Positions 491-13,527 of a stretch of 64,000 nucleotides of DNA are shown piece after piece; the stretch's first letter is position 1; each line of letters begins with the position of its first letter. Under the pieces are notes generated by a model. It searched no databases. It was not told where the DNA came from and was given only the letters and a program-made list of their open reading frames with translations. The stretch covers positions 14,151-78,150 of the forward strand of contig JBKPRJ010000055.1 of NCBI GenBank assembly GCA_046734455.1, given 5' to 3'. Position numbers and translations under genes: made by a program. This DNA is from Actinomycetota bacterium (lineage in GTDB: Bacteria > Actinomycetota > Thermoleophilia > Gaiellales > Gaiellaceae).

Positions 491-1849
491 CTAGGGCAGT
501 CCCTCACGGGCTACGCGTGCGACGAGCTTCGCGCTGTCGCGCACGCGGCGCTCGAGCGTGTCGAAGTCGACGTGCACGATGCCGAAGCGGTAGCTGTAGC
601 CGTGCGGCCACTCGAAGTTGTCGAGGAGCGACCAGACGAAGTAGCCGCGCAGCGGCAATCCGCGCTCGACAGCGGTCAGCGCCGCTTCGAAGTGACGCTC
701 GAGGAAGCTGACCCGGTCGGGATCGCACGTCGGATCGCGGACGTCGAGAGGATAGGCGGCGCCGTTTTCGGTCACGTAGATCGGCAGGTCGCCCGTGCGC
801 GACGCGGCGAACTCGAGCACCTCCAGGAGGCCGGCGGGATAGACCTCCCACCCCATTTCGGTCTGCTCGTGCCCGTCGGGCGAGGCGAGCGCCGGGAGGA
901 AGGGCGAGCGAACCAGGTGGCGGCAGTAGTAGTTGACGCCGAGGAAATCGATCGGGCTCGCGATCAGCTCCAGGTCGCCGTCTTGCACCTCGTCCCGATG
1001 CCAGCCCGCGGCCTGCACCGCTTCCTCGGGATAGCCGCGTCCGGCAATGGGATCGAGGTACCAGCGGTTGAGCCGGTCGTGGGCGACGATCGCGGCCTCC
1101 TGGTCGAGCATGTGCGGCGTGGCCGGATGCTTCGGATGGAAGTTGAGGACGATCCCGGCCTCGACGCCCGGGGCGGCCACCCGAATCGCCGCGACGGCCA
1201 GGCCGTGCGCGACGAGCAGGTGGTGCGCCGCTGCGAACGCCGCGTCGGGCTCGGTGCGCCCGGGCGCGTGCGTGCCGAGGCCGTAGCCGAGCTCGGCGAC
1301 GACGTAGGGCTCGTTGAGCGTGGCGATGTGGCGGACACGATCCCCGAGCCGCTCGGCCACGATTCCCGCGTAGCGGGCAAAGGCTTCCGCAGTCGCGCGG
1401 ACAGGCCAGCCGCCCGCATCCTCGAGGGCCTGCGGGAGATCCCAGTGGTAAAGCGTCGGGTAGGGCTCGATCCCGTGCTCCAGGAGCTCGTCCACCAAGC
1501 GGTCGTAGAAGTCGAGCCCGGCCTGGTTCACGGCACCGGATCCGTCGGGCACGACGCGCGGCCAGGCGATCGAGAAGCGGTACCCGTCGAGACCGAGCTC
1601 CGCCATGAGGGCGACGTCCTCGCGGTAGAGGTGGTAGTGGTCGCAGGCGACGTCGCCCGTGTCGCCGTTCCAGATCCGTCCGGGCGTGTGCGCGAAGCGG
1701 TCCCAGATGCTCTCGCCGCGCCCGTCGGCCGTGACCGCGCCTTCGATCTGGTACGACGCCGTCGCTGCTCCCCAGACGAATCCGGCGGGGAAGCGGCGGC
1801 CTCCGGCCGGCTCCCCTGCCTGCTCCGGGTCGAGAACTCCGCGGCTCAT
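491..1849 (-). CDS. GH1 beta-glucosidase (BglC-like)
   Basis: The real start is ATG 1847-1849, inside track ORF 491..2770 (452 aa). GH1 motifs are present: [23 protein letters not shown] (acid/base) and YVTENG (nucleophile). ATGA overlap with the upstream permease. Confidence 0.93.
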
Positions 1850-2709
1850 CCCTTCACGGCTCCTTCGAGGATTCCGCCCACGATCTGCTTGCCGAGGAGC
1901 GCGAACACGATGAGCACCGGCACCGTCCCGACGAGCGTGCCCGCGAGGATGATGGAGCGGTCGGGGACGTAGCCCTGTCCGAGGCTGTTGAGCGCGACCT
2001 GGACGGTCGGGTTCTGGCTGGAAAGCGCGATGATCGGCCAGAAGAAGTCGTTCCAGGCCGTGAGGAACGTCAGCATCCCGAGGACCGCCATCGCCGGGCG
2101 GGCGGTCGGGAGCACGATCGAGCGGAAGATGCGGAAGGTGGAGGCGCCGTCGACGACCGCGGCCTCGATGATCTCCGTGGGCAGCGCGCGGATCAGGTAC
2201 TGCCGCATGAAGACGACGCCGAACGCGCTGACGAGGGTCGGCAGGATCACGGCCTGCAGGTGGTTCACCCAGCCGAGCTTGGCGACGAGGATGAAGAGCG
2301 GGACGACGCCGAGCTGGGCCGGAACCATCATCGTCGCGAGGAGGATGATGAGCAGCGCTGTGCTCCCGCGGAAGCGGAGCTTCGCGAACGCAAACCCGGC
2401 GAGCGTGCAGAAGAAGACGGTCCCGAGCGCGATCGCCCCGGCGACGACGAGCGAGTTCAGGAGCGCCTTGAACATGTCGACCTGGTCGAGCGCTTCGCGG
2501 ATGTTGGAGAAGAGGTTTCCGCCGGGCGTGAGCGGAGGCGGCGTCTTCGAGATGTCCGCGTTCGTGCGCGACGCAGCAACGACCGTCCAGTAGAGCGGGA
2601 AGATCGCGAGCACCGTCGTCAGCGTGAGGATCACGTAGGTGAGCGGTCCTCCGCGGCGTTCCCCCACCCGGCGCCCGAAGAACCTGCGCGGGCTCGCGAC
2701 GGCGCTCAC
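1846..2709 (-). CDS. Carbohydrate ABC transporter permease (MalG/CebG-like)
   Basis: 287-aa multi-TM protein with an EAA loop (IIEAAVVDGASTFRIF). GTG start in a GTGA overlap with the upstream permease. Confidence 0.92.
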   Translation of the reverse strand: MSAVASPRRFFGRRVGERRGGPLTYVILTLTTVLAIFPLYWTVVAASRTNADISKTPPPLTPGGNLFSNIREALDQVDMFKALLNSLVVAGAIALGTVFFCTLAGFAFAKLRFRGSTALLIILLATMMVPAQLGVVPLFILVAKLGWVNHLQAVILPTLVSAFGVVFMRQYLIRALPTEIIEAAVVDGASTFRIFRSIVLPTARPAMAVLGMLTFLTAWNDFFWPIIALSSQNPTVQVALNSLGQGYVPDRSIILAGTLVGTVPVLIVFALLGKQIVGGILEGAVKG

Positions 2710-3713
2710 GCCGGCCTCCCCTTCCGGCCGAGCGTGAACGCGCTCCTGCCGCGCGCCGCGAGCAGCGCATTGATCCCGACCGCCACGATGATGATCAGGA
2801 ACATCGTCCAGGCCGTCGCGGCGGCACGGCCGAGCTGGAAGTTGAACCAGCCCTGCTCGTAGAGAAGGAGGCCCAGGGTCTGGTACTGGTGGTCGGCGCC
2901 GCCCGAGTGGCCGCCGGCTCCGCCGAAGAGGAGAGGCTCGCCGAAGAGCTGGGTCGCTCCGATCGTCGAGATGATGATCGTGAAGACGATCGTCGGCCAG
3001 ATGCCCGGGACGGTGACGTGGCGGAACTGGTGCCAGCGAGTCGCGCCGTCAACCTCCGCCGCTTCATAGAGGTCTTTCGGGACCGCCTGCATCGCCGCGA
3101 GGTAGATGAGCGCGTTGTAGCCCGTCCAGCGCCACGTGACGATCGTCGAGATCGCGATCTGCGACGACCAGCGTCCGCTCTCCCAGTCGACGTTGTCGAA
3201 GCCGAGGAGGCCGAGGAACGAGTTGATGAGGCCGAAGTCGCGGCCGAACAGCATGGCGAAGACGATGGTGGCGGCCGCAACCGAGGTCGCATACGGCATG
3301 AGGAGCGAGACGCGCCAGAAGGTCGATCCCCGCACCTTGCAGTCGAGGGCGTAGGCGAGCCCGAGCGCCATCAACAGCTGCGGGACCGTCGAGATGACGC
3401 CGATCGTGAACGTGTTCGTGAGGGCGTTCCAGAAGCGGTCGTCGTGGAAGAGCCGCGTGTAGTTGTCGAGCCCGACCCACTCCATCTCGTCGGTGTTCTG
3501 GAGCGTGACGCTGTGGAGCGAGACCCACGCGGTGTAGACGAGAGGGAAGAGCCCGAAGGCAATGAAGAGGAGGAAGAAGGGCGAGACGTACGCGTACGGA
3601 GAGAAGCGCTGGTCGAACCTCGTCAGCCGCATGCGCCACGGCCGCGGTGCCGCCGGGTCAGCGCGGAGGGCGACTGCCGCGGCGAGCTCGGTATCGGTGC
3701 TGGTCTTCGCCAC
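2706..3713 (-). CDS. Carbohydrate ABC transporter permease (MalF/CebF-like)
   Basis: 335-aa ORF with TM helices and an EAA loop (YEAAEVDGATRWHQF). The start is GTG 3713, or alternatively ATG 3632. Confidence 0.9.
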   Translation of the reverse strand: MAKTSTDTELAAAVALRADPAAPRPWRMRLTRFDQRFSPYAYVSPFFLLFIAFGLFPLVYTAWVSLHSVTLQNTDEMEWVGLDNYTRLFHDDRFWNALTNTFTIGVISTVPQLLMALGLAYALDCKVRGSTFWRVSLLMPYATSVAAATIVFAMLFGRDFGLINSFLGLLGFDNVDWESGRWSSQIAISTIVTWRWTGYNALIYLAAMQAVPKDLYEAAEVDGATRWHQFRHVTVPGIWPTIVFTIIISTIGATQLFGEPLLFGGAGGHSGGADHQYQTLGLLLYEQGWFNFQLGRAAATAWTMFLIIIVAVGINALLAARGRSAFTLGRKGRPA

Positions 3714-3793
3714 GTAGCTGGATGGGCGTCCGGCGGCTCCCGACGATACAGCCGGGAGCCGCCGGTGAGGAGGTCAGGATCGCCCGCGGTGCG

Positions 3794-5125
3794 TCATCCG
3801 ATGGCGCTCGCGATCTCGTCCATGGTCTTCTGCCAGGCGGTGTCGGGGTCCTCGCCCTGCTGGTCCACTCGCAGGAGACCGTTCGAGATCGTGTCCTTGA
3901 TGACGCCGTCTTTCGGCCCGAGGGTCGCGACGGTGAGATTGTCGGCGGACTCCTTGAAGAGCTCGCCCACGGGCGCGTTCGAGAAGTACTCGTCCGTGGC
4001 GGCCGCGACGGCATCGTCCTCGGCCGCGGTCGAGCTCGACGGGAAGTGCTGCGCCTGCGTCCACATCTTCACCTGCTGCTCGGGGGCGGTCAGCCACTGG
4101 ATCAGGTCGTACGCCTCCTGCTGGTGCTCGCTGGCGGTTGGGATGGCGAGATACGAGCCGCCCCAGTTTCCGCCCCCGCCCGGGATGGGAGCGACGTCCC
4201 ACTTGCCCGAGCCGGTGTCGCCGGCCTGGCCCTTGATGTAGCCGATCATCCAGGCGGGGCAGGCGATCGTCGCGAAGCGTCCGTTGGCAAACGCCTGGTT
4301 CCACGGCTGGTCGAACTGCTTGAGCTTTGCGGTCAGCCCGGCCTGGATCGCCGAGACCGCGAGGTCCCACGCGTCCTTGACAGCCGGGTTCGTGTCGTAG
4401 ATCGGGTTGCCTTCCGTGTCGTAGTACTGGGTCTCCGACTGGCCGATGATGGCGTTGTAGTAGCCGGAGGCGCTGTCCATGAACGCGGAGTTGTCGGGCG
4501 CGTTCGCCGCGTACTGCTTGCCGACCTCGATGAAGTCGGGCCACGTCTGCCACATCGACGCGAGCTCGTCGCGGTCGGTCGGCAGCCCGGCCTTCTTGAA
4601 GAGATCCGTCCGGTAGCAGATCGCGAGGGGGCCGGTATCGGTGCCGAGCCCGACGACCGCGCCGTCGGGGCTCGTGGCCGCCTCCCACTTCCACGGGAAG
4701 AAGGTGCTCTGGAGATCGTCCGCGCCGAGATCGCGCAAGTCGACGAACTTGTCCGCCTGCGTCTGCGTCACCTCGGCGATGCGCGCGACTTCGATGCCCT
4801 GGATGTCGGAGAGGCCGGCGCCGCCGGCGAGATGAGTCTGCAAAGCCTGGTAGTAGTCCTGCTCGAACTCGATGCTCGTCTCCTTGATGGTGACGTTCGG
4901 GTGGAGCGTCATGTACTCGTCGTACAGCCCGGCTTCCTTGTAGCCGAACGTGCCGAAGAGCCCGACGGTCAGCGTCACCTTCTCGCTGCTCGCCGACGCA
5001 GTCTCCGACCCACCGGACACCGCGTCGTCGCCTCCGCAGCCGAGGGCCGCCAGCACCAGGCCGGCAGCGACCGCGAGCAACGAAACGACGCGCGCCCACG
5101 TCGATGCCTGCAACGGTTTCAGCAT
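3794..5125 (-). CDS. Sugar ABC transporter substrate-binding lipoprotein (CebE-like)
   Basis: Real start is ATG 5123-5125 with SD GAGGAGG upstream. The lipoprotein signal is MLKPLQASTWARVVSLLAVAAGLVLAALGCGGDD. The rest resembles a family-1 solute-binding protein. Confidence 0.9.
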   Translation of the reverse strand: MLKPLQASTWARVVSLLAVAAGLVLAALGCGGDDAVSGGSETASASSEKVTLTVGLFGTFGYKEAGLYDEYMTLHPNVTIKETSIEFEQDYYQALQTHLAGGAGLSDIQGIEVARIAEVTQTQADKFVDLRDLGADDLQSTFFPWKWEAATSPDGAVVGLGTDTGPLAICYRTDLFKKAGLPTDRDELASMWQTWPDFIEVGKQYAANAPDNSAFMDSASGYYNAIIGQSETQYYDTEGNPIYDTNPAVKDAWDLAVSAIQAGLTAKLKQFDQPWNQAFANGRFATIACPAWMIGYIKGQAGDTGSGKWDVAPIPGGGGNWGGSYLAIPTASEHQQEAYDLIQWLTAPEQQVKMWTQAQHFPSSSTAAEDDAVAAATDEYFSNAPVGELFKESADNLTVATLGPKDGVIKDTISNGLLRVDQQGEDPDTAWQKTMDEIASAIG

Positions 5126-5190
5126 CTGAACCTCCTCGAAGAATCCGCGCGGGAGCCCGTTGGCTCGACCGCCCGAAGCGCTCGATAAGA

Positions 5191-5219
5191 TGTAAGCGCT
5201 TTCATTGGAAGCGCTTACA
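5191..5219. promoter_or_regulatory. Pair of LacI-type palindromic operators (CebR-box-like)
   Basis: TGTAAGCGCTTTCA (5191-5204) and TGGAAGCGCTTACA (5206-5219) each centre on GCGC. Together they form an 11-bp perfect inverted repeat, TGTAAGCGCTT/AAGCGCTTACA. They lie between the divergent binding-protein gene and the LacI gene. Confidence 0.6.
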
Positions 5220-6296
5220 TTACACTGCAAGCGACGACGTGTAAAGGAGGCGGAGATCAAGAAGGCGGAGCAGCATTCCCACGGGGGCCGGTCCCTCCCG
5301 ACGATCGCCGAGGTGGCACGGCTCGCGACCGTCTCGACGGCGACGGTGTCGCGTGTGGTCAACGGGTCCCCCAACGTGCGGCCCACGACGCGGGACGCCG
5401 TCCTCGATGCGATCGACCAGCTCGGCTACACGCCCAATCGCGCCGCCCGCACGCTGGTCACTCGGCGGACGGACACGATCGCCCTCGTCGTCTCCGAGTC
5501 CGAGACGCGCGTCTTCTCCGACCCCTTCTTCCCGAGCATCGTCCGCGGCGTCTCGGCCGCGCTCGCGCACACCGAGCTCCAGCTCCTGCTCCTCATGGCC
5601 CGCGACGACAGGGAGCATGCGAAGGTCGAGCGCTACGTGCGCCAGGGGCACGTCGACGGCGTCATTCTCATGTCGCTGCACGGGGACGATCCCCTGCCGA
5701 AAACGCTCCCCCGGCTCGGCGTGCCGACGGTGCTCGTGGGCAGGCCGAAGAGCGACGAACGCCTCCCCTGGGTGGATGCGGACAACCGCGGCGGCGCCCG
5801 GGCCGCGACGGGACGACTGCTCTCCGGCGGGAGGAAGAGCGTCGCGACGATCACGGGGCCTCTCGACATGACGGTGAGCGTCGATCGCTTCGACGGCTAT
5901 CGCGACGCCCTGCGGGCAGCGGGACGGCGCTACCGGAAGAGCCTCGTCGCCCACGGCGACTTCGGCAAGGAATCCGGCGCGCGCGGCATCCGGGAGCTCG
6001 CCCAGCGCGTGCCCGACATGGACGCCGTGTTCGTCGCCAACGACCCGATGGCGATCGGCGCACTCGAGGCGCTGCGCTCCCTCGGCCGGCGCGTCCCGGA
6101 CGACGTCGCGGTCATCGGCTTCGACGACATCGCCGAGGCCGCCCTCACCGACCCTCCGCTGACCACCGTCAGCCAGCCCCTCGAGCAGATGACGAACGCG
6201 CTCGCGGAGCTCCTCCTCAGGCGCATCAGCCGCCTCGGTGATGCGGAGGAGTCGGTCGTCGTGCCGACCCAGCTCGTCGCACGCGCATCGGCCTAG
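5205..6296 (+). CDS. LacI-family transcriptional repressor (CebR-like)
   Basis: The HTH is PTIAEVARLATVSTATVSRVVNG, followed by a periplasmic-binding-fold effector domain. The start is uncertain. The track start is TTG 5205, inside the operator. An SD (AAGGAGG, 5244-5250) is followed in frame only by ATC 5256. Confidence 0.88.
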   Translation: MEALTLHCKRRRVKEAEIKKAEQHSHGGRSLPTIAEVARLATVSTATVSRVVNGSPNVRPTTRDAVLDAIDQLGYTPNRAARTLVTRRTDTIALVVSESETRVFSDPFFPSIVRGVSAALAHTELQLLLLMARDDREHAKVERYVRQGHVDGVILMSLHGDDPLPKTLPRLGVPTVLVGRPKSDERLPWVDADNRGGARAATGRLLSGGRKSVATITGPLDMTVSVDRFDGYRDALRAAGRRYRKSLVAHGDFGKESGARGIRELAQRVPDMDAVFVANDPMAIGALEALRSLGRRVPDDVAVIGFDDIAEAALTDPPLTTVSQPLEQMTNALAELLLRRISRLGDAEESVVVPTQLVARASA

Positions 6297-6304
6297 CGGC
6301 TGCG

Positions 6305-7612
6305 CTAGCGAGACGGTTCGAGCAGGACCGACATGCCGTCGGCCAGCTCCGTCATGCGGCCGAGAAACAGCGATCCCTTGGCGACCAGCATCGTCGAGTC
6401 GATCTCGCCGGCGCGGAGCGCCTCGAGACCGTGTGGTAGCCAAGGCACGGCCGAGGCGACGTGGCCCTGCGTCGGCGAGAAGCCGGGCAGGCCGCGCTCG
6501 CGCTCGAAGCCGTCCAGCTGCTCACGCGGGAGCTCTCCTCGCTTGACCGCCAGTGCGGCGATGAGCTTGTAGTTGCGCTGCGGCACGTTGCCCGCCCCCG
6601 CCGGTTCGGTGATCTCCGGGTCGTGGAGCTCGGTCGCGTACCGGTCGACGTCGAGGATCCCGCGGCCGAGGCGCCCGAGCGGTTCGACGACGAGGTCTTC
6701 GAGAACCGCCTGCTGCGCCGAGCCCGAGCCGACGCGGTGGCGTCCGACGGCGTCGAGGCGGATCGTCGCGGCGCCATCCTCTACGGGGCCCACGAGAATC
6801 GCGAGGCCGGCGAGGACGTCCTCGAGGACAGGCACGTCGTTGCGCAGCGCGCCGGCGAACTTCATGCCGAGCTTGGCGAGCGAGCCTCCTGCGACGACCG
6901 CCACGTGCTCGTACACGCCTGAACTGACGAGCGAGGCTGCGACGACGAGCGCGTGGATCGGGCCCGCGCAGAAGGCCTTGACATCGGAGCCGGACGCGTT
7001 GACGCAGCCGGCTTGCTCGGCGATCGCCTTGCCGAGATTGCCGCCGCCGCGCTGGTAGCGGTCGCCCACCGCCTCCTCGCCGCAGCCGATCGCGTACGCA
7101 AGTTCCTCGGCGGGGAAGCCGGTGCGGGTCAGGAGGTGCTCGAGCGCGACGGCGCCGGTCGCCTTGCAGGCGAGGTTCTCGAGCAGGACGCTGGCCGAGA
7201 GGCTCTCGTCGAGCTCGTGGGCACGGTCCATGACACCCGCTCGGCTGCCGTTGCGGTAGAGAGGAAGCGCGCCGTCGGCGGCCTCGCGCCCATCCAGGTG
7301 GAGGAGCTGGAACTGGTCCGCGGCGGCCATGCGCGAGTAGAGCTCGTCCTGGTCGACGAAGACGCCGAACGGGCCCTCGGCTTTCGGCTCGGCGGGATGG
7401 CGCCACCACGGGCGCTCCGTCTCCCAGAGCGCGTCCGGCGAGAGGTTGCCGATGAAGACCTGGTGCGGCGGGTAGCCGAGCGCCTCGTCGAACGTACGGA
7501 GGGCCAGCTTGATCTCATCGGCGGCGTGCTCCCGGGCCGGCTTCGATCCGTGGCGGACGAGGTCGGGCGCGTGGGCGAGAACGAGGCTGCAGCCGTGGAC
7601 GGCGGCGCTCAC
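6305..7612 (-). CDS. Glycine/sarcosine/betaine reductase component C beta-subunit-like protein (GrdC-like, thiolase-type fold)
   Basis: Preferred start is GTG 7610-7612 with GGAAGGG 8 nt upstream; the track start 7654 is an alternative. The N-terminus (LVLAHAPDLVRHGSKP...LRTFDEALGYPPHQVFIGNL...RPWW) resembles GrdC N-termini as I remember them. The central block DVKAFCAGPIHALVVAASLVSSGVYEHVAVVAGGS is thiolase-like. The family call is from memory, not searched. Confidence 0.7.
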   Translation of the reverse strand: MSAAVHGCSLVLAHAPDLVRHGSKPAREHAADEIKLALRTFDEALGYPPHQVFIGNLSPDALWETERPWWRHPAEPKAEGPFGVFVDQDELYSRMAAADQFQLLHLDGREAADGALPLYRNGSRAGVMDRAHELDESLSASVLLENLACKATGAVALEHLLTRTGFPAEELAYAIGCGEEAVGDRYQRGGGNLGKAIAEQAGCVNASGSDVKAFCAGPIHALVVAASLVSSGVYEHVAVVAGGSLAKLGMKFAGALRNDVPVLEDVLAGLAILVGPVEDGAATIRLDAVGRHRVGSGSAQQAVLEDLVVEPLGRLGRGILDVDRYATELHDPEITEPAGAGNVPQRNYKLIAALAVKRGELPREQLDGFERERGLPGFSPTQGHVASAVPWLPHGLEALRAGEIDSTMLVAKGSLFLGRMTELADGMSVLLEPSR

Positions 7613-7718
7613 CGGCCGCGCCCTTCCGGCTCGTTCTCGGCACATTCCACGCACCTCGCTCGCGATTTACGGCGATACGATCGAGGTGGGTGGAGGCATG
7701 GGGTGGCCGAGGAAACGG

Positions 7719-8990
7719 TCACTCGTCGACCTCCCAGACGGTGGTCGCCTCGACGTCTGTCTCGAGCATGTCGAGTGCGCGCTCCACGATCCGCCGCCGC
7801 TCCTCCTCGTCGAGCCCGAACGGATGCGTGATCGCCGGACCGCGCACGATGCGGTTCGCTCCGATCATCGTGGCAACGGTCGGAAGCGACGTCACGTAGA
7901 CCGCCGGTATTCCCGCCCGCTCGATCTCCTTCGCCAGCACTGCCCCGCAGCGCGTGCCCGTCCCTCAGGTGCCGGAGAGGAGGACGGCTTGTACGCCCGC
8001 GTCGCGAAGCTCGCCCGCGATCTCCTGCCCGAATTTCGTCGCGACGACGACGGGCGTGCCGTTCCCCGTCGTCGTGTAGAGCGACTCGTGGACGCGGCCC
8101 ACGCGCCCAGCGCGCTCGAGGCCGCGAACCGTGTCGAGCGGGACGAGCCGGTTCGGATCCTCGTTCGCGAGGGTGACGTCGAAGCCGCCGTGCACCGACT
8201 CGTACCGGCCCGACGCGAGTGTCTCGGCGCCGCCGAGGTCGTAGCGGAACCAGCCCTGCGCACGCACGGACTGAAGGTGGTCCGGATTTCCCTGCGGCAC
8301 ACACCCGGCCTCGGTCACGAGCGCCACGAGCGCGGACGACAGGTCGGCAACCGGAGGCGGCGGCTCGACGCGGTCCATGTCTCCGCCGACCTCGGTTCGC
8401 GTCTCGCCGGCGAGCTTCGCAAGGAGGAGCCCGACCGCGCGCTCGGCGCCGGTCTTCTCGGCGAAATAGTTGCGCCGGAACCCGCGCACGAGGTAGCCCT
8501 CCTCGTCGGCCGAGCCGAGCTCGCGGCCCGACGCGAGCGCGGAGGTAAGAGCCCCGAGCCGCGGGAGAGCGTCGCGCATCCCGGCAACGTTCACGGCCGT
8601 CGGGACGACGTAGGCGGCACCTGCCTCCCCCACACCCGGGTTCTCCTCGTGCATGGCCGCGACGGCCGGAATTCCCCGCTCGGCGGCGGCCGCGGCGAGC
8701 CGCGCACATGCGTAGCCGTATCGGCCGGAGCCGAACGCCGGCCCGGCGACGAGGACGTCCGGTTCGTGCTCGGCCAGCATCTCGAGCAGCGTCGCCAAAG
8801 CCTCCTCCTCGTGCTCGGCGAAGTAGTCGTCCCCGCAGGCGAGCGTCGCGACGATCTCGACGCCTTGGAGCTCGGCGGCGAGCCCGCGCCCGGGCCCGAC
8901 CGCTCCCTCGAGCCGCGTCGGCGGCGTCTCGGCCTGCTCCTCCCCGCCCAGGCCGGCGAAGAACTGGTTCAGGTAGTGGACGGCCTTCAC
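7719..8990 (-). CDS. Glycine/sarcosine/betaine/D-proline reductase family selenoprotein B (GrdB/GrdF/GrdH-like), with in-frame UGA (Sec) at 7965-7967
   Basis: Track ORFs 7965..9278 and 7719..7940 share one frame, and TGA 7965-7967 is the only interruption. The start is GTG 8988-8990 (VKAVHYLNQFFAGLGGEE) in a GTGA overlap with the upstream gene. Read-through gives LLSGT-U-GTGTRCGAVLAKEIERAGIPAVYVTS, the family Sec block. The product is 423 codons with Sec at about residue 342. Confidence 0.85.
7937..7967 (-). other. Sec UGA codon plus candidate SECIS hairpin
   Basis: UGA lies at 7965-7967. A hairpin, GCGCUGC-GGG-GCAGUGC (7 bp including one G-U, G-rich apical loop), spans 7937-7953 and starts 11 nt after the UGA. 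Confidence 0.55.
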
Positions 8991-10162
8991 TCGGTCCTCG
9001 CACTCAGGGCCAGCTGCCCCATCTGGTTGGCGGCGCCGAGGTAGTTGCGGACGGGAATCGGGCCAGCCGCGGCCGCCTGAGCCCCGTCCAGGAGCCGATC
9101 GCCGCCGAGCACGCGCTCCGGCGTCCACGCGTCGACGAGCTCCTCGACGTTCCCGGTCGAGACGATCGAATCGGCCTCCCGTACCCAGTCGGTGAGGATC
9201 GGCTTCGTCGACTGAGGATCGGTCTCCTCGGCCAGGACGACAGTTGTGCGGATGCCGGCCTGCTCGCACGCGCGGCATGTGAGCATGACGTCGGTGTGCG
9301 AGTTGCCGCCCGCGTCCGTCGTGATGACGACGCCGTCCGCGCCGAGCTCGCCGGCGACAGCGGCCCCTCGCTCCGCCGCGTGCTGCTTGTCGGCCGCACT
9401 CTGTTCGTAGCCACGCATCAGGACGACGCCGGCGAAGCGCAGTGACTTCCCATGCTCGCGGTAGAGCGTGCGGATGAGCTCGTTCCGCTGGAAGAACCAG
9501 GTCGGGTTCCGCATCGCGGCCCAGTGGTACTCGCCGCAGGTGACCGCGCCGTCGAGCACCTCGGCGGGGCCGAAGGCGCGCGGCAAGCCGGCATCGCCCG
9601 CCGGCACGCCGTAGACGTACTGGATGTACAGCGGCCCCAGATCGGAGAGCTGGATGAGTGCCGCGACCGCCGGGAGGCCCGCATCGCCCGCGCCGAGCGC
9701 GAAGCGCTCCACCTCATCGTGCTCGGCGTCGAGCGTCCCGCGCGCGATCTCCTCGGCAACGGAGAGAGTGGTGCGGCGCGCCTCCGCATCGATCGCCACA
9801 TGCCCTCCCCCTCCAGGCGAGAAGGTGAGGATGACGGCGGTCATGTCGGAAAAGGGAGTCAGCGCGGCGCCGGGACCGCCGAGGTCGACGATCGACTCCT
9901 GCTCGTGGAGAGGCCTCTCCTCGCCCGGGAAGTCGAGGCACGAAAGGACGACGACGCCGTCGAGGCGGTTCGTCCGCCCCTCCCCGGCCCGCCCGTCGGT
10001 GGGGAACGCGGGGCGGCCGTCGGGCCGGATCCGCGGCTCCACGGCGTCGAGCACGTGCGTCACGCGCACGGGGGAGCCACGCGGCACGACCTCGACGTCC
10101 GCACCCTCGACGACAGGCTCCCGAAGGAGGTCGGGCGAGAACGATGCGAGCTCCCACGGCAT
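8987..10162 (-). CDS. Glycine/sarcosine/betaine reductase component B alpha/beta proprotein-like (GrdE/GrdG/GrdI-like)
   Basis: 391-aa ORF immediately upstream of, and translationally coupled to, the selenoprotein B gene. It has the size and layout of GrdE-type partners. Cys209 (AVTCGEYHW) is a possible self-processing site. Confidence 0.75.
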   Translation of the reverse strand: MPWELASFSPDLLREPVVEGADVEVVPRGSPVRVTHVLDAVEPRIRPDGRPAFPTDGRAGEGRTNRLDGVVVLSCLDFPGEERPLHEQESIVDLGGPGAALTPFSDMTAVILTFSPGGGGHVAIDAEARRTTLSVAEEIARGTLDAEHDEVERFALGAGDAGLPAVAALIQLSDLGPLYIQYVYGVPAGDAGLPRAFGPAEVLDGAVTCGEYHWAAMRNPTWFFQRNELIRTLYREHGKSLRFAGVVLMRGYEQSAADKQHAAERGAAVAGELGADGVVITTDAGGNSHTDVMLTCRACEQAGIRTTVVLAEETDPQSTKPILTDWVREADSIVSTGNVEELVDAWTPERVLGGDRLLDGAQAAAAGPIPVRNYLGAANQMGQLALSARTE

Positions 10163-10183
10163 CAGGCCCGAATTCTCTCGCAG

Positions 10184-12592
10184 TCAGGCACGGACGCGCT
10201 CGTTCTCCGGGTCGTAGAGGGCGTCCGCCGCGATCTCGGCGGGAACCATCTCGCCGAAGACCTCGACCTCGAGCTTCGTCCCCTCCGCGAGCTCCGACGG
10301 CACGTAGGCGAGTGCGACGTTGCGGCCCACGGTGAATCCGTAGCCGGCGCTGCGCACTCGACCGATCACCGAACCGTTCAGGTGGATCGCCTCGCCGCCG
10401 TAGACCGTCGCATACTCGGCGCCGCCGACGAGCAGCGTCCTCAGGCGCCGCGCGGGCTCTCTACCTTCGAGCGCCGCCCGCCCGGTGAACTCCTTGTCCC
10501 ATGAGACGCAGAAGCCGAGGCCGGCCTCGAGCGGGTCGTCCCCCGCCGTCAGGTCGGTGCCGAAGTAGCGGTAGCCCTTCTCGAGGCGCAGGGAGTCGAG
10601 GACGCGGTAGCCGCCCGGCGCGATCCCGAACAGCTCGCCGGCCGCCATCAGGCGGTCCCACACCTGCACGGCCGAGTCGCGCGCGAGGTAGAGCTCGAAG
10701 CCGAGCTCGCCCACGTAGGTGATCCGCTGTGCGAGCACCGCGATTCCGCCGACCGCGATGTCCTTTGCGCGGCGGAACGGCAGAGCCTCGGCGGCGACGT
10801 CGTCTTCCGTCACCGACTGGAGCACGGCCCTCGCCTCGGGCCCCCAGAGCCCGATGACAGCGAGCTCGTCGGTCTCGTCGCGGATCTCCACGACCCCGTC
10901 CTCCGGCCGCGCTTTGAGCCGCAGCCAGCCGAGGTCGGAGTCGACTGCGCCCGCGCCGGTGACGACACGGAAGCGTTCGTCGCCGAGCCGTGTCACGGTG
11001 AGATCGGAGACGATGCCGCCGCGGTCGTTCAGGAACTGGGTGTAGACCACGCTGCCGACCGGCCGGTCGATCCGGTTGTCCGCGACGCGCTCGAGAAGCG
11101 CCAGCGCCCCCGGTCCCGCGACCTCGATTTTCCCGAACGACGTCATGTCGATGATCCCGACGCGCTCGCGGAACGCGCGGTGCTCTGCGGCGAGCAGGTC
11201 GAGATAGGGCGGCGGGTTCCAGCCGAACTCGCGCTGGTCGGCGCCCGCGCGGCGCCAGGCCCGGCCGGGCCGGAAGTAGTCGGCCCGCTCCCAGCCGTTC
11301 TTCGTGCCGAAGACCGCGCCGAGCTCCTGCAGCCGCCCATGGAGCGGGCTCAGCCGCTGCGGCCTCCCCCATTCGTCGGTGTCGAGGGGATAGCGAAGGC
11401 GGTAGTAGTAGCGATAGACCTCGCGCGCGGCCGCGGTCGTGAAGCCCGGGTCGCGGTAGGGCCCGCCGAAACGCCAGGGCCTGTAGCCCTGGACGTCCAG
11501 CTCCGACTCGCCGGAGGTGATCAGCTCCGCGGCGGTCTTCCCCATCCCGCCGGCGCCGCCGAAGCCGTTGAGCGAGAGGCCCGCGGCCATCCAGAAGCCG
11601 GGTACGCCGGGCAGCGGGCCGAGCAGTGGGTTCCCGTCCGGCGTCATCGCGTCGGGATGGCAGACGAGCTTGAGCATCCCCGCGTCCTGCAGGAACGGGA
11701 AGCGGCGGATCGCGCCCTGCCAGAGAGGCCGGAAGCGCTCCTCGTTCGGAGGGAGCGAGGCGCTCCCGTGCTCCCACGGGACGCCGTCCTCCCAGCGCGA
11801 GGCGGGATCGCCCTCGTAGCCGCCGAAGAGCATTCCGCCAGCCTCCGAGCGCCCGTAGACGAGGTTGTCGGTGTCCCGGAAGCAGGGCATCGCACGCGGC
11901 AGCTCGTAGCCGTCGACGGAGGCGAGCGCGATGTGCTGGTGGTCGACCGGAATCGACGGCGTGAAGGCGCCCACCATCGCGGCGACCTGCGGCGCCCAGA
12001 TCCCACAGGCGTTCACCACGCACTCCGTCTCGATCCGTCCGTTCTCGGTATGGACGGCGCGCACCTCGCGGCGGGAGCCAAGCTCGATTCCCGTCACGCG
12101 CATGCCGGTTTGAAAGCGGACTCCGAGATCGCGTGCGGCCGAGGCGAGGGCGTGTGTCGCGGTGTGCGGGTCGACCGCGCCGTCGTCAGGAATCCAAACC
12201 GCGCCGTGGAGGGACTCCTCGGTCGCCGCAGGCATGAGGCGCACCGCGTCCTCCGGGCCGATGACCTCCACGTCGAAGCCGATGGCGCGCGCGCGGCTCG
12301 CGCCGCGCTGCAACTCCTTGAGGCTCTCCGGGCTCGACGCGATGCGCAGGCTCCCGACGGTCTCGAAGACGCCGAGCTCACGGTAGAGCTCCACGCTGTA
12401 GCGGCGGAAGCGCATCATCGTCGGCGAGGGGTTGAACTGCGTCACGAGCCCCGCCGCGTGGCAGGTCGACCCGCTCGTCAGCTCCCCTTTCTCGAGCAGG
12501 AGCACATCGGTCCAGCCCGCTTTGGCGAGGTGATAGGCGACGCTCGTCCCGGTGATCCCGCCGCCGATGACAACCACCCTCGCCCGCTCCAT
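10184..12592 (-). CDS. FAD-dependent dimethylglycine/sarcosine oxidase-dehydrogenase with a C-terminal GcvT-type folate-binding domain
   Basis: 802 aa. The N-terminal dinucleotide fold is VVVIGGGITGTSVAYHLAK. The segment SGSTCHAAGL is present. The C-terminal aminomethyltransferase-like half matches the ~800-aa dimethylglycine oxidase architecture. Confidence 0.9.
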   Translation of the reverse strand: MERARVVVIGGGITGTSVAYHLAKAGWTDVLLLEKGELTSGSTCHAAGLVTQFNPSPTMMRFRRYSVELYRELGVFETVGSLRIASSPESLKELQRGASRARAIGFDVEVIGPEDAVRLMPAATEESLHGAVWIPDDGAVDPHTATHALASAARDLGVRFQTGMRVTGIELGSRREVRAVHTENGRIETECVVNACGIWAPQVAAMVGAFTPSIPVDHQHIALASVDGYELPRAMPCFRDTDNLVYGRSEAGGMLFGGYEGDPASRWEDGVPWEHGSASLPPNEERFRPLWQGAIRRFPFLQDAGMLKLVCHPDAMTPDGNPLLGPLPGVPGFWMAAGLSLNGFGGAGGMGKTAAELITSGESELDVQGYRPWRFGGPYRDPGFTTAAAREVYRYYYRLRYPLDTDEWGRPQRLSPLHGRLQELGAVFGTKNGWERADYFRPGRAWRRAGADQREFGWNPPPYLDLLAAEHRAFRERVGIIDMTSFGKIEVAGPGALALLERVADNRIDRPVGSVVYTQFLNDRGGIVSDLTVTRLGDERFRVVTGAGAVDSDLGWLRLKARPEDGVVEIRDETDELAVIGLWGPEARAVLQSVTEDDVAAEALPFRRAKDIAVGGIAVLAQRITYVGELGFELYLARDSAVQVWDRLMAAGELFGIAPGGYRVLDSLRLEKGYRYFGTDLTAGDDPLEAGLGFCVSWDKEFTGRAALEGREPARRLRTLLVGGAEYATVYGGEAIHLNGSVIGRVRSAGYGFTVGRNVALAYVPSELAEGTKLEVEVFGEMVPAEIAADALYDPENERVRA

Positions 12593-12612
12593 GCGATAGA
12601 AACCTACGCCAC

Positions 12613-13527
12613 GTGGAAGGCGGCGGCACGCAGATCGACGAAGTCCTCGAGCTCGTTCCCGAGCTGCGAGACGCGCACGCCGTCTCCGAGCTCGCGGGCG
12701 GGCTGACGAACACGAACTACAAGGTCGAGGCCGAGGGCGGCGCCTACGTCGTCCGCGTCTCCGCGAAGGACGCGGGGCTCCTCGCCATTGACCGGGAGAA
12801 CGAGTACTTGAACACGGTCGCGGCCGCCGAGGCGGGCGTCGGGGCCGGCGTGGTCGCCTACATGCCCGACCGCGGCGTTCTCGTGCTCGAGTTCATCGAA
12901 GGGCAGACGCAGACGGCGGAGGATCTGCGCCGCGGCAACCGGCTCGACTGGGTCGCAGCCGCCTGCCGCAAGCTGCACGGCGCACGGCGCTTCCGCGACG
13001 ACTTCAACATGTTCCGGATTCAGCAGCGCTATCTGGGCCTCGTCCAGGAGCGCGGCTTCCGACTTCCCGACGGCTATCTCGACTACGAGCCGCAGGTGCG
13101 CCGGATCGAGAGGGCCATGGCCGTCAGGGACGAGGGCACGGTTCCCTGCAACAACGACCTCCTCGCCGAGAACTTCATCGACGTGGGCGACGGCTTCAGG
13201 CTCATCGACTACGAGTACTCCGGCAACAACGACGCGTGCTTCGAGCTCGGCAACGTCTGGAGCGAGTCGAACCTCGCGCTCGAGCAGCTCGACGAGATCG
13301 TCGCGCGCTACTACGGCCGGCAGCTCGCCAACAAGGTCGCCCGCGCGCGCCTCTGGGGGCTCATGTCGAAGTACGGGTGGACGCTCTGGGCGTCCATCCA
13401 GGACAGCGTGTCCGACATCGACTTCGACTTCTGGGGCTGGGGAATGGAGAAGTACGAGCGCGCCGTCGCCGAATTCGAGGGTCCCGACTTCGAGCGCCTG
13501 CTCGAGGACGTGGAGCGCGAGGATTGA
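12613..13527 (+). CDS. Choline/ethanolamine kinase-family phosphotransferase
   Basis: 304 aa. It carries a Brenner-type motif (PCNNDLLAENFI) and a choline-kinase-type motif (LIDYEYSGNND). It diverges 20 nt from the DMG-oxidase-type gene. Confidence 0.8.
   Translation: MEGGGTQIDEVLELVPELRDAHAVSELAGGLTNTNYKVEAEGGAYVVRVSAKDAGLLAIDRENEYLNTVAAAEAGVGAGVVAYMPDRGVLVLEFIEGQTQTAEDLRRGNRLDWVAAACRKLHGARRFRDDFNMFRIQQRYLGLVQERGFRLPDGYLDYEPQVRRIERAMAVRDEGTVPCNNDLLAENFIDVGDGFRLIDYEYSGNNDACFELGNVWSESNLALEQLDEIVARYYGRQLANKVARARLWGLMSKYGWTLWASIQDSVSDIDFDFWGWGMEKYERAVAEFEGPDFERLLEDVERED

Follow-up and report, generated by a model that had tools for sequence, protein, structure and literature searches.

Gene content of the locus

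The stretch of DNA analysed here (the window) comprises 64,000 nt of contig JBKPRJ010000055.1, from a soil actinobacterium of the family Gaiellaceae, and has a G+C content of 70%. Both this composition and the closest relatives in databases agree with an origin in the Gaiellaceae (class Thermoleophilia, phylum Actinomycetota). Its subject is a cluster of Grd-type (glycine-reductase-type) genes. Four closely packed genes run on the minus strand from 12592 down to 6305 and encode an oxidase, a GrdE-like subunit, a GrdB-like subunit and GrdC. The gap between the oxidase gene and the grdE-like gene is 21 nt, and the stop and start codons of the grdE-like and grdB-like genes overlap (GTGA). An earlier reading of the window, made from the sequence alone (the sequence-only reading), had described these genes as a minus-strand operon with a divergent kinase gene beside it, and this layout was confirmed at the coordinates given here. 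Its inventory was correct for the four genes, but two further genes at the window edge had been overlooked, namely a thioredoxin gene (trx, 445-119) and the start of grdA (122-1). The supporting GrdA and thioredoxin are thus not encoded elsewhere but at the same locus, displaced from grdC by an insertion. The features of the reductase are listed below (aa, amino acids; Sec, selenocysteine; SECIS, selenocysteine insertion sequence).

10162->8987, minus strand: GrdE/G/I-family protein B subunit, expected to be of the unprocessed type, 391 aa; PF09338 (Gly_reductase) 226 bits
8990->7719, minus strand: selenoprotein-B-family subunit, 423 aa, Sec342; PF07355 404 bits, TIGR01918 438 bits (cutoff 65)
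7937..7953, minus strand: SECIS-like hairpin with 6 bp in the stem and 5 nt in the loop, beginning 15 nt past the U of UGA
7654 (or 7612)->6305, minus strand: GrdC, protein C beta subunit; NF040746 537 bits (cutoff 450), DUF5940 174 bits
445->119, minus strand: Grd-associated thioredoxin with active site WGPRCQPC; PF00085 66 bits
122->1, minus strand: grdA (selenoprotein A), first 40 codons, ending ...ETEC; read from the translation, with an ATGA overlap with trx

Relatives were collected by a genome scan that retained one genome per species and yielded 49 loci. These species-level loci, found by homology search, lie in metagenome-assembled genomes (MAGs) of Gaiellaceae or Gaiellales, or in MAGs labelled just Actinomycetes, Actinomycetota or Thermoleophilia. 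Profile matches bore out the Grd-type identity that the sequence-only reading had assigned to the genes, and its selenoprotein proved to be real: the single in-frame TGA of the grdB-like gene (7967->7965, residue 342) was present in 47/47 loci, within the invariant context GT-U-GT(G/S)(T/S)RCG. Moreover, differences from the relatives were approximately three times more frequent at third codon positions. The retention of this TGA in an invariant context, together with the bias of the differences, argues that the cluster is not a product of chance. Public gene calls split the selenoprotein genes in two throughout; in locus L055, for example, they appear as 343 + 67 aa and 42 + 104 aa.

The window edge cuts grdA two codons before its Sec codon, and the Sec codon of this copy therefore lies outside the window. 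Full-length relatives read TECFV-U-TAAGAMD, a CxxU redox motif, with TGA in 46/46. The GrdA of locus L011 scored 215 bits against PF04723 and 217.5 bits against NF040748 (equivalog cutoff 130). Downstream of the grdB TGA, a consensus fold of 12 relatives kept all 6 pairs of the hairpin, with one compensatory and three one-sided changes. The alignment lends modest support to this hairpin, which is suggestive only as a SECIS element. A scan for sigma-70 promoters and terminators found no sites between the genes; at 70% G+C such a scan is uninformative.

A B pair outside the named groups

The GrdB-like subunit scored below the cutoffs of the specific NCBIfam models for GrdF (437 bits, cutoff 800), GrdB (407 bits, cutoff 602) and GrdH (379 bits, cutoff 775), and shares 45-46% identity with GrdF and GrdB and 39% with GrdH. 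The GrdB motif and the GrdF motif defined by Nobu et al. (PMC9751293), both of which are satisfied by the reference sequences, were not matched in full; the agreement extended just to the parts YxNx6GGE, CGD and TxGNxTxV, the last being of the GrdB type. A closer inspection of the Sec site revealed GT-U-GTGTRCG in the window, i.e. UxxGxxC and not UxxCxxC. The first cysteine of UxxCxxC is replaced by Gly in 46 loci and by Ser in one, while UxxCxxC is found in all four references.

The GrdE-like subunit was similarly remote from the specific models (GrdG 145 bits, cutoff 780; FarE 71 bits, cutoff 675) and is 28-32% identical to GrdE references. Its processing site was aligned with those of GrdE (Acetoanaerobium noterae and Photobacterium), GrdG (Peptoclostridium acidaminophilum) and GrdI (Enterococcus gilvus). 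Where GrdE and GrdG have S-G-N-C-V-S/A-A/P-C and GrdI has S-G-S-F-M-P-C, the window and other Gaiellales have G-E-Y-H-W-A-A, with Glu-Tyr instead of the pyruvoyl-forming Asn-Cys in all five Gaiellales sequences checked. Two conserved cysteines are required for the autocatalytic formation of the N-terminal pyruvoyl group, and GrdI and FarE, which lack them, are hence not proproteins (PMC10838667). From its sequence, the GrdE-like subunit is likewise expected not to be a pyruvoyl proprotein. Two alternative pyruvoyl sites were considered and rejected. Neither is conserved: the cysteine of TCGEY, three residues upstream, is replaced by Ala in L037, L041 and L044, and the Asn-Ser of GGNSHTD, which is typical of the clade, gives way to Ala in many relatives.

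We then placed the subunit within its wider family, using the 150 best representatives of 50%-identity clusters (P0121-P0270) from a library of 1.84 billion proteins. The 120 that were near full length (370-560 aa) were aligned with 9 references and Gaiellales sequences, giving 129 in total. Among the 120, the canonical Asn-Cys was found in P0226 only; P0151 has a cysteine after the tyrosine (N-Y-C). Approximately 90 of the 129 sequences carry Tyr or Phe at the position of the pyruvoyl cysteine, often as Asn-Tyr, and the pyruvoyl enzymes so far characterised look like a small minority of the PF09338 family. In a neighbour-joining tree of the 129 sequences the window falls inside an 18-leaf 'xY' clade, and GrdE, GrdG, GrdI and one canonical representative form a separate clade of 5 leaves.

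The sequence-only reading, which had called the two genes of the B pair GrdE/G/I-like and selenoprotein-B-like, is not supported on this point: the pair groups with neither GrdB/F/H nor GrdE/G/I, and motifs, cutoffs and the separate clade all set it apart. D-proline reductase, which that reading had named as one grouping that would count against it, does not account for the pair either, as PrdB (80 bits, cutoff 300) and PrdA (33 bits, cutoff 700) remained below their cutoffs; the presence of GrdA and GrdC also makes a Prd-type system unlikely. By these comparisons, the B pair lies outside the GrdBE, GrdFG, GrdHI, FarBE and PrdAB groups. Sequence and profile searches of the PDB gave no solved structure for either B subunit family.

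These substitutions may reflect a new B specificity that dispenses with the Schiff base and acts on a substrate with a good leaving group, such as glycine betaine, N,N-dimethylglycine (DMG), a sulfonium compound or a haloacetate. This is a tentative proposal, to which we give less than even odds. It would account for the absence of both processing-site cysteines, as in GrdI and FarE, and of the first cysteine of UxxCxxC, a feature that has a counterpart in FarB, which lacks the whole CxxC (PMC10838667). The many Tyr/Phe sequences of the family also point to a large radiation of non-pyruvoyl members. Conversely, GrdH is the least similar of the three B types, GrdI falls in the canonical clade and away from the window, and the GrdB-type TxGNxTxV is retained.

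Two further observations concern the B subunits. In locus L054 (8001-10700), an ABC transporter operon is followed by genes for a GrdE-like subunit of the Tyr type and a GrdB-like subunit, the latter with TGA (LTGT-U-GTGTRCG); aminotransferase genes are nearby and no grdA, grdC or trx lies within 8 kb. As these partners are missing there, the B pair may also be active outside the Grd complex. In L001 (9269-11179), the public call for the GrdE-like protein P0096 is 631 aa long and runs across an oppositely oriented kinase gene, and its start is probably miscalled.

A conserved five-gene module without grdD

Wherever a Gaiellales locus extends far enough downstream (46/46), the genes grdE-like, grdB (Sec), grdC, trx and grdA (Sec) follow one another directly, and the window alone is interrupted. 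In all 46, trx lies between grdC and grdA, and the WGPRCQPC motif is kept in 45/47. The same five-gene order was found in three distant metagenome loci (L055, L056 and L057) whose GrdE-like proteins are 43-49% identical to that of the window.

No grdD was found with the module. A tblastn search with three GrdDs gave no match (E<=1e-3) in the 64-kb window or in the 49 loci, and the earlier statement that no grdD follows grdC was therefore correct; the GrdD (PlsX-like) gene is also absent from the Pfam-annotated L055, L056 and L057. Likewise, a search with two TrxBs found none in the window or the 49 loci, although TrxB may be encoded elsewhere in the genome. Reference operons were taken from annotated replicons of E. 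gilvus (pCR1A), A. noterae and a Photobacterium, and in all three grdD directly follows grdC.

The GrdC of the window, whose true start is probably at 7612, keeps the FabH-like cysteine (FCAGP) and other invariant residues. We aligned four GrdCs from GrdD-less loci (window, L017, L055 and L057) with three GrdD-linked GrdCs (L051, L052 and L053). The former lack an internal segment of 33 residues and a C-terminal tail of approximately 35 residues, and these two segments are candidates for GrdD-contact regions.

It could be argued that the module is a glycine reductase of the ordinary kind, serving substrate-level phosphorylation where soil microsites are anoxic, with GrdD and TrxB encoded elsewhere and its peculiarities due to neutral drift. 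GrdA and GrdC indeed pass their equivalog cutoffs and the TxGNxTxV motif of GrdB is kept. Moreover, gene order also varies among canonical systems, being trxB-trx-grdA-grdC-grdD-grdI-grdH on E. gilvus pCR1A and trxB-trx-grdE-grdA-grdB-grdC-grdD in A. noterae. Nevertheless, we consider this unlikely. The gene that adjoins grdC in the three reference systems is missing from that place in 46 Gaiellales and three distant loci, the GrdCs are without the two segments of their GrdD-linked counterparts, and the catalytic-site substitutions are invariant across 47 genomes and not drifting.

The gene directly upstream of the reductase differs among the 49 loci: 26 have an IclR regulator there, 12 the kinase gene and 8, besides the window, the oxidase gene. 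An APC-family permease gene, preceded by genes for a metallophosphoesterase and an uncharacterised protein, is part of the upstream set in 14. The reductase, permease/phosphoesterase and oxidase/kinase genes occur in all three pairwise combinations, which speaks for the new specificity proposed above; the lack of a BCCT-type betaine transporter speaks against it. So does L056 (360-2124), where a GntR regulator gene and a gene of the GntG/low-specificity threonine-aldolase family (376 bits, cutoff 230) stand directly upstream of the module, co-directional with it, since the latter would produce glycine. No other member has a clearer hint of a glycine-producing step beside it.

Immediately downstream of grdA, on the opposite strand, some loci carry genes for a 659-aa GMC-family oxidoreductase with an N-terminal extension and for DNA-3-methyladenine glycosylase I. 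This pair was seen in L001, L006, L008-L013, L016, L021, L031, L042, L043 and L047, which are the same loci that have the permease/phosphoesterase genes upstream. The best matches of the GMC-family protein were mycofactocin MftG and choline dehydrogenase, both weak.

The oxidase gene is a recent addition

Upstream of the reductase genes, the window has the following features (DMGDH and DMGO, DMG dehydrogenase and DMG oxidase).

12592->10184, minus strand: DMGDH/DMGO-family flavoenzyme with a folate (GcvT) domain, 802 aa, first cistron; DAO, FAO_M, GCV_T and GCV_T_C domains
12593..12612, between the divergent genes: conserved leader of 20 nt, GTGGCGTAGGTTTCTATCGC, with TAGGTT (-10-like) 8 nt before the operon ATG
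12613..13527, plus strand: choline/ethanolamine-kinase (APH) family gene, divergent; PF01633 75.9 bits, PF01636

The oxidase (DAO 236 bits, GCV_T 257 bits, GCV_T_C 73 bits) is collinear over its full length with rat DMGDH (4pab; 460 bits, residues 2-800) and with Arthrobacter DMGO (1pj5; 453 bits, residues 4-801). It is equally similar to an oxidase and to dehydrogenases linked to electron-transferring flavoprotein (ETF), and no NCBIfam equivalog cutoff was reached. The kinase gene lies, as previously described, 20 nt from the oxidase ATG in divergent orientation; its best NCBIfam match was GntI-like (174 bits), under the cutoff of 357.

In the window, L003, L005, L006, L016 and L049 the leader GTGGCGTAGGTTTCTAYCGS stands before the oxidase ATG; in L001, L008 and L012, which have no oxidase gene there, it stands before the grdE ATG. 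The same leader before either ATG indicates that the oxidase gene has been cleanly inserted or deleted as first cistron. The earlier view that the oxidase gene opens the same tightly packed unit was upheld. The leader may hold a promoter, although the sigma-70 consensus scan found nothing. It is nearly invariant, and the position of TAGGTT, 8 nt before the ATG, fits a leaderless transcript. As 20 nt are too short for two divergent promoters, either at least one promoter lies inside a coding region or the start of the kinase gene is miscalled.

The sequence-only reading had made conservation of the linkage in relatives a test of its proposal, and the linkage is not conserved. The oxidase gene occupies the first-cistron position in 9 of approximately 44 Gaiellales genomes. 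In a reciprocal survey of 80 soil-metagenome loci encoding oxidase relatives (67-93% identity), grdE follows the oxidase gene in 12/12 loci with an identity of >=80% but in 0/56 of the less similar ones, while the kinase gene adjoins the oxidase relatives in 52/57 metagenome loci. There are thus two modules, kinase/oxidase/permease and the five-gene reductase, which are neighbours in approximately one third of Gaiellales species. They are joined in one apparent operon only in the narrow lineage of the window, where the oxidase gene is a recent, lineage-specific addition.

These data bear on the proposal that oxidase and reductase form one dedicated pathway, from DMG via sarcosine or glycine to acetyl phosphate. 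The local arrangement makes it plausible: the oxidase gene opens the series, 21 nt before grdE and behind a shared conserved leader, and this is kept in 8 related genomes and in all 12 metagenome loci at >=80% oxidase identity. The sarcosine models, moreover, score best for the B pair (GrdF 437 bits, GrdG 145 bits). However, approximately 35 of 44 Gaiellales genomes keep the reductase without the oxidase linkage, the linkage is absent from all 56 loci with oxidase relatives below 80%, and the close relatives L001, L008 and L012 lost or never had the oxidase gene, their grdE standing directly behind the same leader. The motifs and cutoffs of GrdF and GrdB were failed as well. The absence of the Asn-Cys precursor of a Schiff base with glycine or sarcosine further weakens a route that ends in classical reductive cleavage. 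We therefore regard a dedicated pathway as quite unlikely; what survives of the idea is at best lineage-specific. Under a new B specificity, the reductase would instead be, where the oxidase is present, a parallel and oxygen-independent route for the same imported compound.

More distant oxidase relatives (67-70%) are encoded in a conserved operon together with a metallophosphoesterase and an APC permease, whose genes come first, and a choline-kinase-like kinase, whose gene comes last (L083-L088, L098-L101, L126, L139 and others). In some of these operons, genes for another oxidase paralogue (35-48%) and for an aldehyde dehydrogenase are added at the end. To judge by its genes, this operon would seem to be a catabolic module, so far undescribed, that acts on an N-methylated compound and includes a phosphorylation step. 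In L007 (1017-3410) the match to the oxidase gene is broken into five overlapping pieces (47-92% identity), which suggests frameshifts from assembly errors or decay.

A sugar cassette splits the operon

In the window, grdC is separated from trx and grdA by a cassette for sugar uptake, composed as follows.

491..6296, both strands: beta-glucoside uptake/hydrolysis cassette, 5.8 kb, splitting the grd operon; Pfam and NCBIfam matches
5205-6296, plus strand: LacI-family regulator
5386-3794, minus strand: solute-binding protein
3773-2706 and 2709-1846, minus strand: two permeases
about 1870-491, minus strand: GH1 beta-glucosidase; TIGR03356 589 bits

None of the 46 genome loci has the cassette at this site. 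Its breakpoint lies in the last codons of grdC, with junctions at approximately 6296-6308 and 445-491. The grdC of relatives ends ...LLEPGKE*, with the trx ribosome-binding site GGAAAGGAG inside the final codons. In the window it ends ...LLEPSR*, followed by the 5.8-kb cassette and then by GGGGAAGGAG-ATG(trx), and the trx ribosome-binding site is retained. The trx and grdA genes now follow the glucosidase gene on the same strand. The grdC/LacI junction is spanned (6264-6545) by an independent contig from a soil metagenome, and in metagenome locus L060 a LacI gene also follows grdC; the insertion is therefore real and recent. An unrelated insert of 190 nt was seen at the same junction in L005, and the grdC/trx junction may thus be prone to insertions.

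An interrupted operon raises the question of whether the locus is a decaying, non-functional remnant in which the TGAs are real stops and the split amounts to loss of function. The physical interruption and the fragmented oxidase gene of L007 are what such a history would leave. We nevertheless judge it highly improbable, given that both TGAs are at the exact canonical Sec positions with conserved coding sequence downstream in 46-47 genomes, that divergence is biased to third codon positions, that the trx ribosome-binding site was retained at the insertion junction, and that related transcripts are present in soil RNA (see below).

Host and setting

The sequence-only reading was right to assign aerobic-type genes to the host. 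The window encodes MsrA, NDH-2 and a Dps-like ferritin, and a gene for a caa3 oxidase assembly factor (Caa3_CtaG) adjoins the reductase module in most relatives. The DNA runs containing the window sequence were all soil metagenomes or unspecified ones (labelled 'metagenome'). A search of RNA data for co-transcription found related sequence in one soil metatranscriptome only, as short contigs 90-95% identical to parts of all four genes. These are weak evidence that relatives of all four genes are expressed in soil, as the contigs come from related strains and may include DNA.

In the literature library searched, we found no paper tying Gaiellales or Thermoleophilia to grd genes or glycine reductase, and nothing specific on GrdD-less or aerobic Grd systems or on this clade of B pairs. 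Existing database annotation of such genes is a generic 'glycine/sarcosine reductase', and the nearest non-Gaiellales relatives bear the same labels.

Proposed function and its implications

Taken together, these data point to the locus being an uncharacterised subfamily of Grd-type, thioredoxin-driven reductase with two selenoproteins, a reading to which we assign a probability of roughly 0.6. The established scheme for glycine reductase (Andreesen 2004, summarised in PMC13188914 and PMC9908766) serves as the template for its mechanism. By analogy, the B component would bind a substrate of the form X-CH2-COO-, most likely glycine or an N-methylated glycine, and the selenolate of Sec342 would attack the alpha-carbon and displace X. 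The carboxymethyl group would then pass to the Sec of GrdA. GrdC, through the cysteine in FCAGP, would form an enzyme-bound acetyl thioester, leaving GrdA oxidised to Se-S, and the CQPC thioredoxin would re-reduce it. The acetyl group might leave as acetyl phosphate or acetyl-CoA via an enzyme encoded outside the locus. In the lineage of the window, the oxidase plausibly feeds the reductase or shares N-methylglycine substrates with it.

The activation step would have to depart from this template. As the pyruvoyl-precursor cysteine and the first cysteine of UxxCxxC are both missing, activation should differ from that in glycine and sarcosine reductase and resemble that in the unprocessed GrdI and FarE. 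Moreover, without a pyruvoyl precursor the classical Schiff-base activation of glycine or sarcosine could not apply. Either the substrate would bring its own leaving group, as betaine, dimethylglycine or others do, or glycine would be activated in a different way. The neighbours that hint at glycine or N-methylglycines are the oxidase here, the threonine-aldolase-family gene in L056 and the amino-acid permease in 14 of approximately 44 genomes.

Several points weigh against this interpretation. The missing pyruvoyl precursor speaks against glycine or sarcosine as classically understood. The neighbours from which a substrate would be read vary, and in 26 loci the IclR regulator stands alone upstream. 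The tree is a rough distance tree with no support values and no PrdA outgroup, and the GrdD-less status holds for +/-10 kb around the loci and not genome-wide. Folded as a single sequence, the hairpin is no better than shuffles (z = 0.62). The metatranscriptome contigs, short and from related strains, may include DNA, and they span no gene junctions.

A more specific version of this reading is that oxygen-respiring Gaiellaceae and other high-G+C soil bacteria possess a distinct class of Grd-type selenoenzyme, with no pyruvoyl group, no GrdD and a UxxGxxC motif, that turns an amine or carboxymethyl-onium compound (DMG, glycine betaine or glycine) directly into an acetyl unit. We put this forward as a possibility that is, on present evidence, doubtful. 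If true, it would amount to a Sec-dependent C2-salvage of osmolyte-derived carbon in oxic soils, for assimilation or ATP, with a new mode of substrate activation and of acetyl release.

Textbooks treat enzymes of the glycine-reductase type as a mark of strictly anaerobic Stickland fermenters, and a recent review notes that selenoproteins are seldom kept by aerobic bacteria (PMC13188914). Here, two Grd selenoproteins are kept without exception in 46-47 species-level genomes of a soil actinobacterial family that is abundant and has aerobic-respiration genes, in a variant that lacks three supposed hallmarks of such enzymes, namely the pyruvoyl-forming site, the UxxC cysteine and an adjacent GrdD. 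Surveys of Grd distribution that filter by motif would have left out this clade. If active, the system would make reductive C-N (or C-X) cleavage by Sec enzymes ecologically more widespread than has been assumed. It would also imply a new activation chemistry and a new route from GrdC-bound acetyl to central metabolism, and could be a sink for glycine- or betaine-type osmolytes and a source of selenium demand in soils.

Comparison with known systems

Lastly, we compared the locus with the named systems that it resembles. The oxidase has the same DAO + FAO_M + GcvT + GcvT_C architecture as DMG oxidase (Arthrobacter globiformis, 1pj5) and DMG dehydrogenase (rat and human, 4pab and 5l46). Its substrate may be DMG, sarcosine or another N-methyl amine and its acceptor O2 or ETF, and its conserved genomic partners are the kinase, metallophosphoesterase and APC permease and not classical betaine-catabolic genes.

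Fluoroacetate reductase FarBE (Cloacibacillus porcorum, PMC10838667) also has an E-type subunit without the processing cysteines, its FarB lacks the whole CxxC, and it has been proposed to use shared GrdA and GrdC (PMC10838667). However, the FarE model was matched with only 71 bits of the 675 required, the FarBE host is an anaerobic member of the Synergistota, and there is no sign of a halogenated substrate at the window locus.

Sarcosine reductase GrdFG (P. acidaminophilum) provides the best-scoring specific hidden Markov models for both subunits (GrdF 437 bits, GrdG 145 bits), but these scores are far under the cutoffs of 800 and 780. The GrdF motif was failed (IHGGYDR, TTGTGT), and GrdG has the Asn-Cys that the window lacks.

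Betaine reductase GrdHI (E. gilvus pCR1A and P. acidaminophilum) likewise has an aromatic residue in place of the precursor cysteine, as Ser-Phe in GrdI and Glu-Tyr in the window (PMC10838667). In contrast, GrdH is the B type that the window subunit resembles least (379 bits, cutoff 775; 39%) and keeps UxxCxxC, GrdI groups with GrdE and GrdG and apart from the window clade, and the window system is without a BCCT transporter.

Glycine reductase GrdABCDE of Peptostreptococcales (Acetoanaerobium/Clostridium sticklandii and P. acidaminophilum) differs in several respects. The window system has neither grdD nor trxB in its cluster, carries Glu-Tyr for Asn-Cys and UxxGxxC for UxxCxxC, is only 45-46% (GrdB) and 28-32% (GrdE) identical, and belongs to a soil actinobacterium with aerobic-respiration genes. 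Nevertheless, both systems bring together in one cluster a GrdA with CxxU, members of the GrdB and GrdE families, GrdC and a CxPC thioredoxin; their Sec positions are identical, and GrdA and GrdC pass the NCBIfam equivalog cutoffs.

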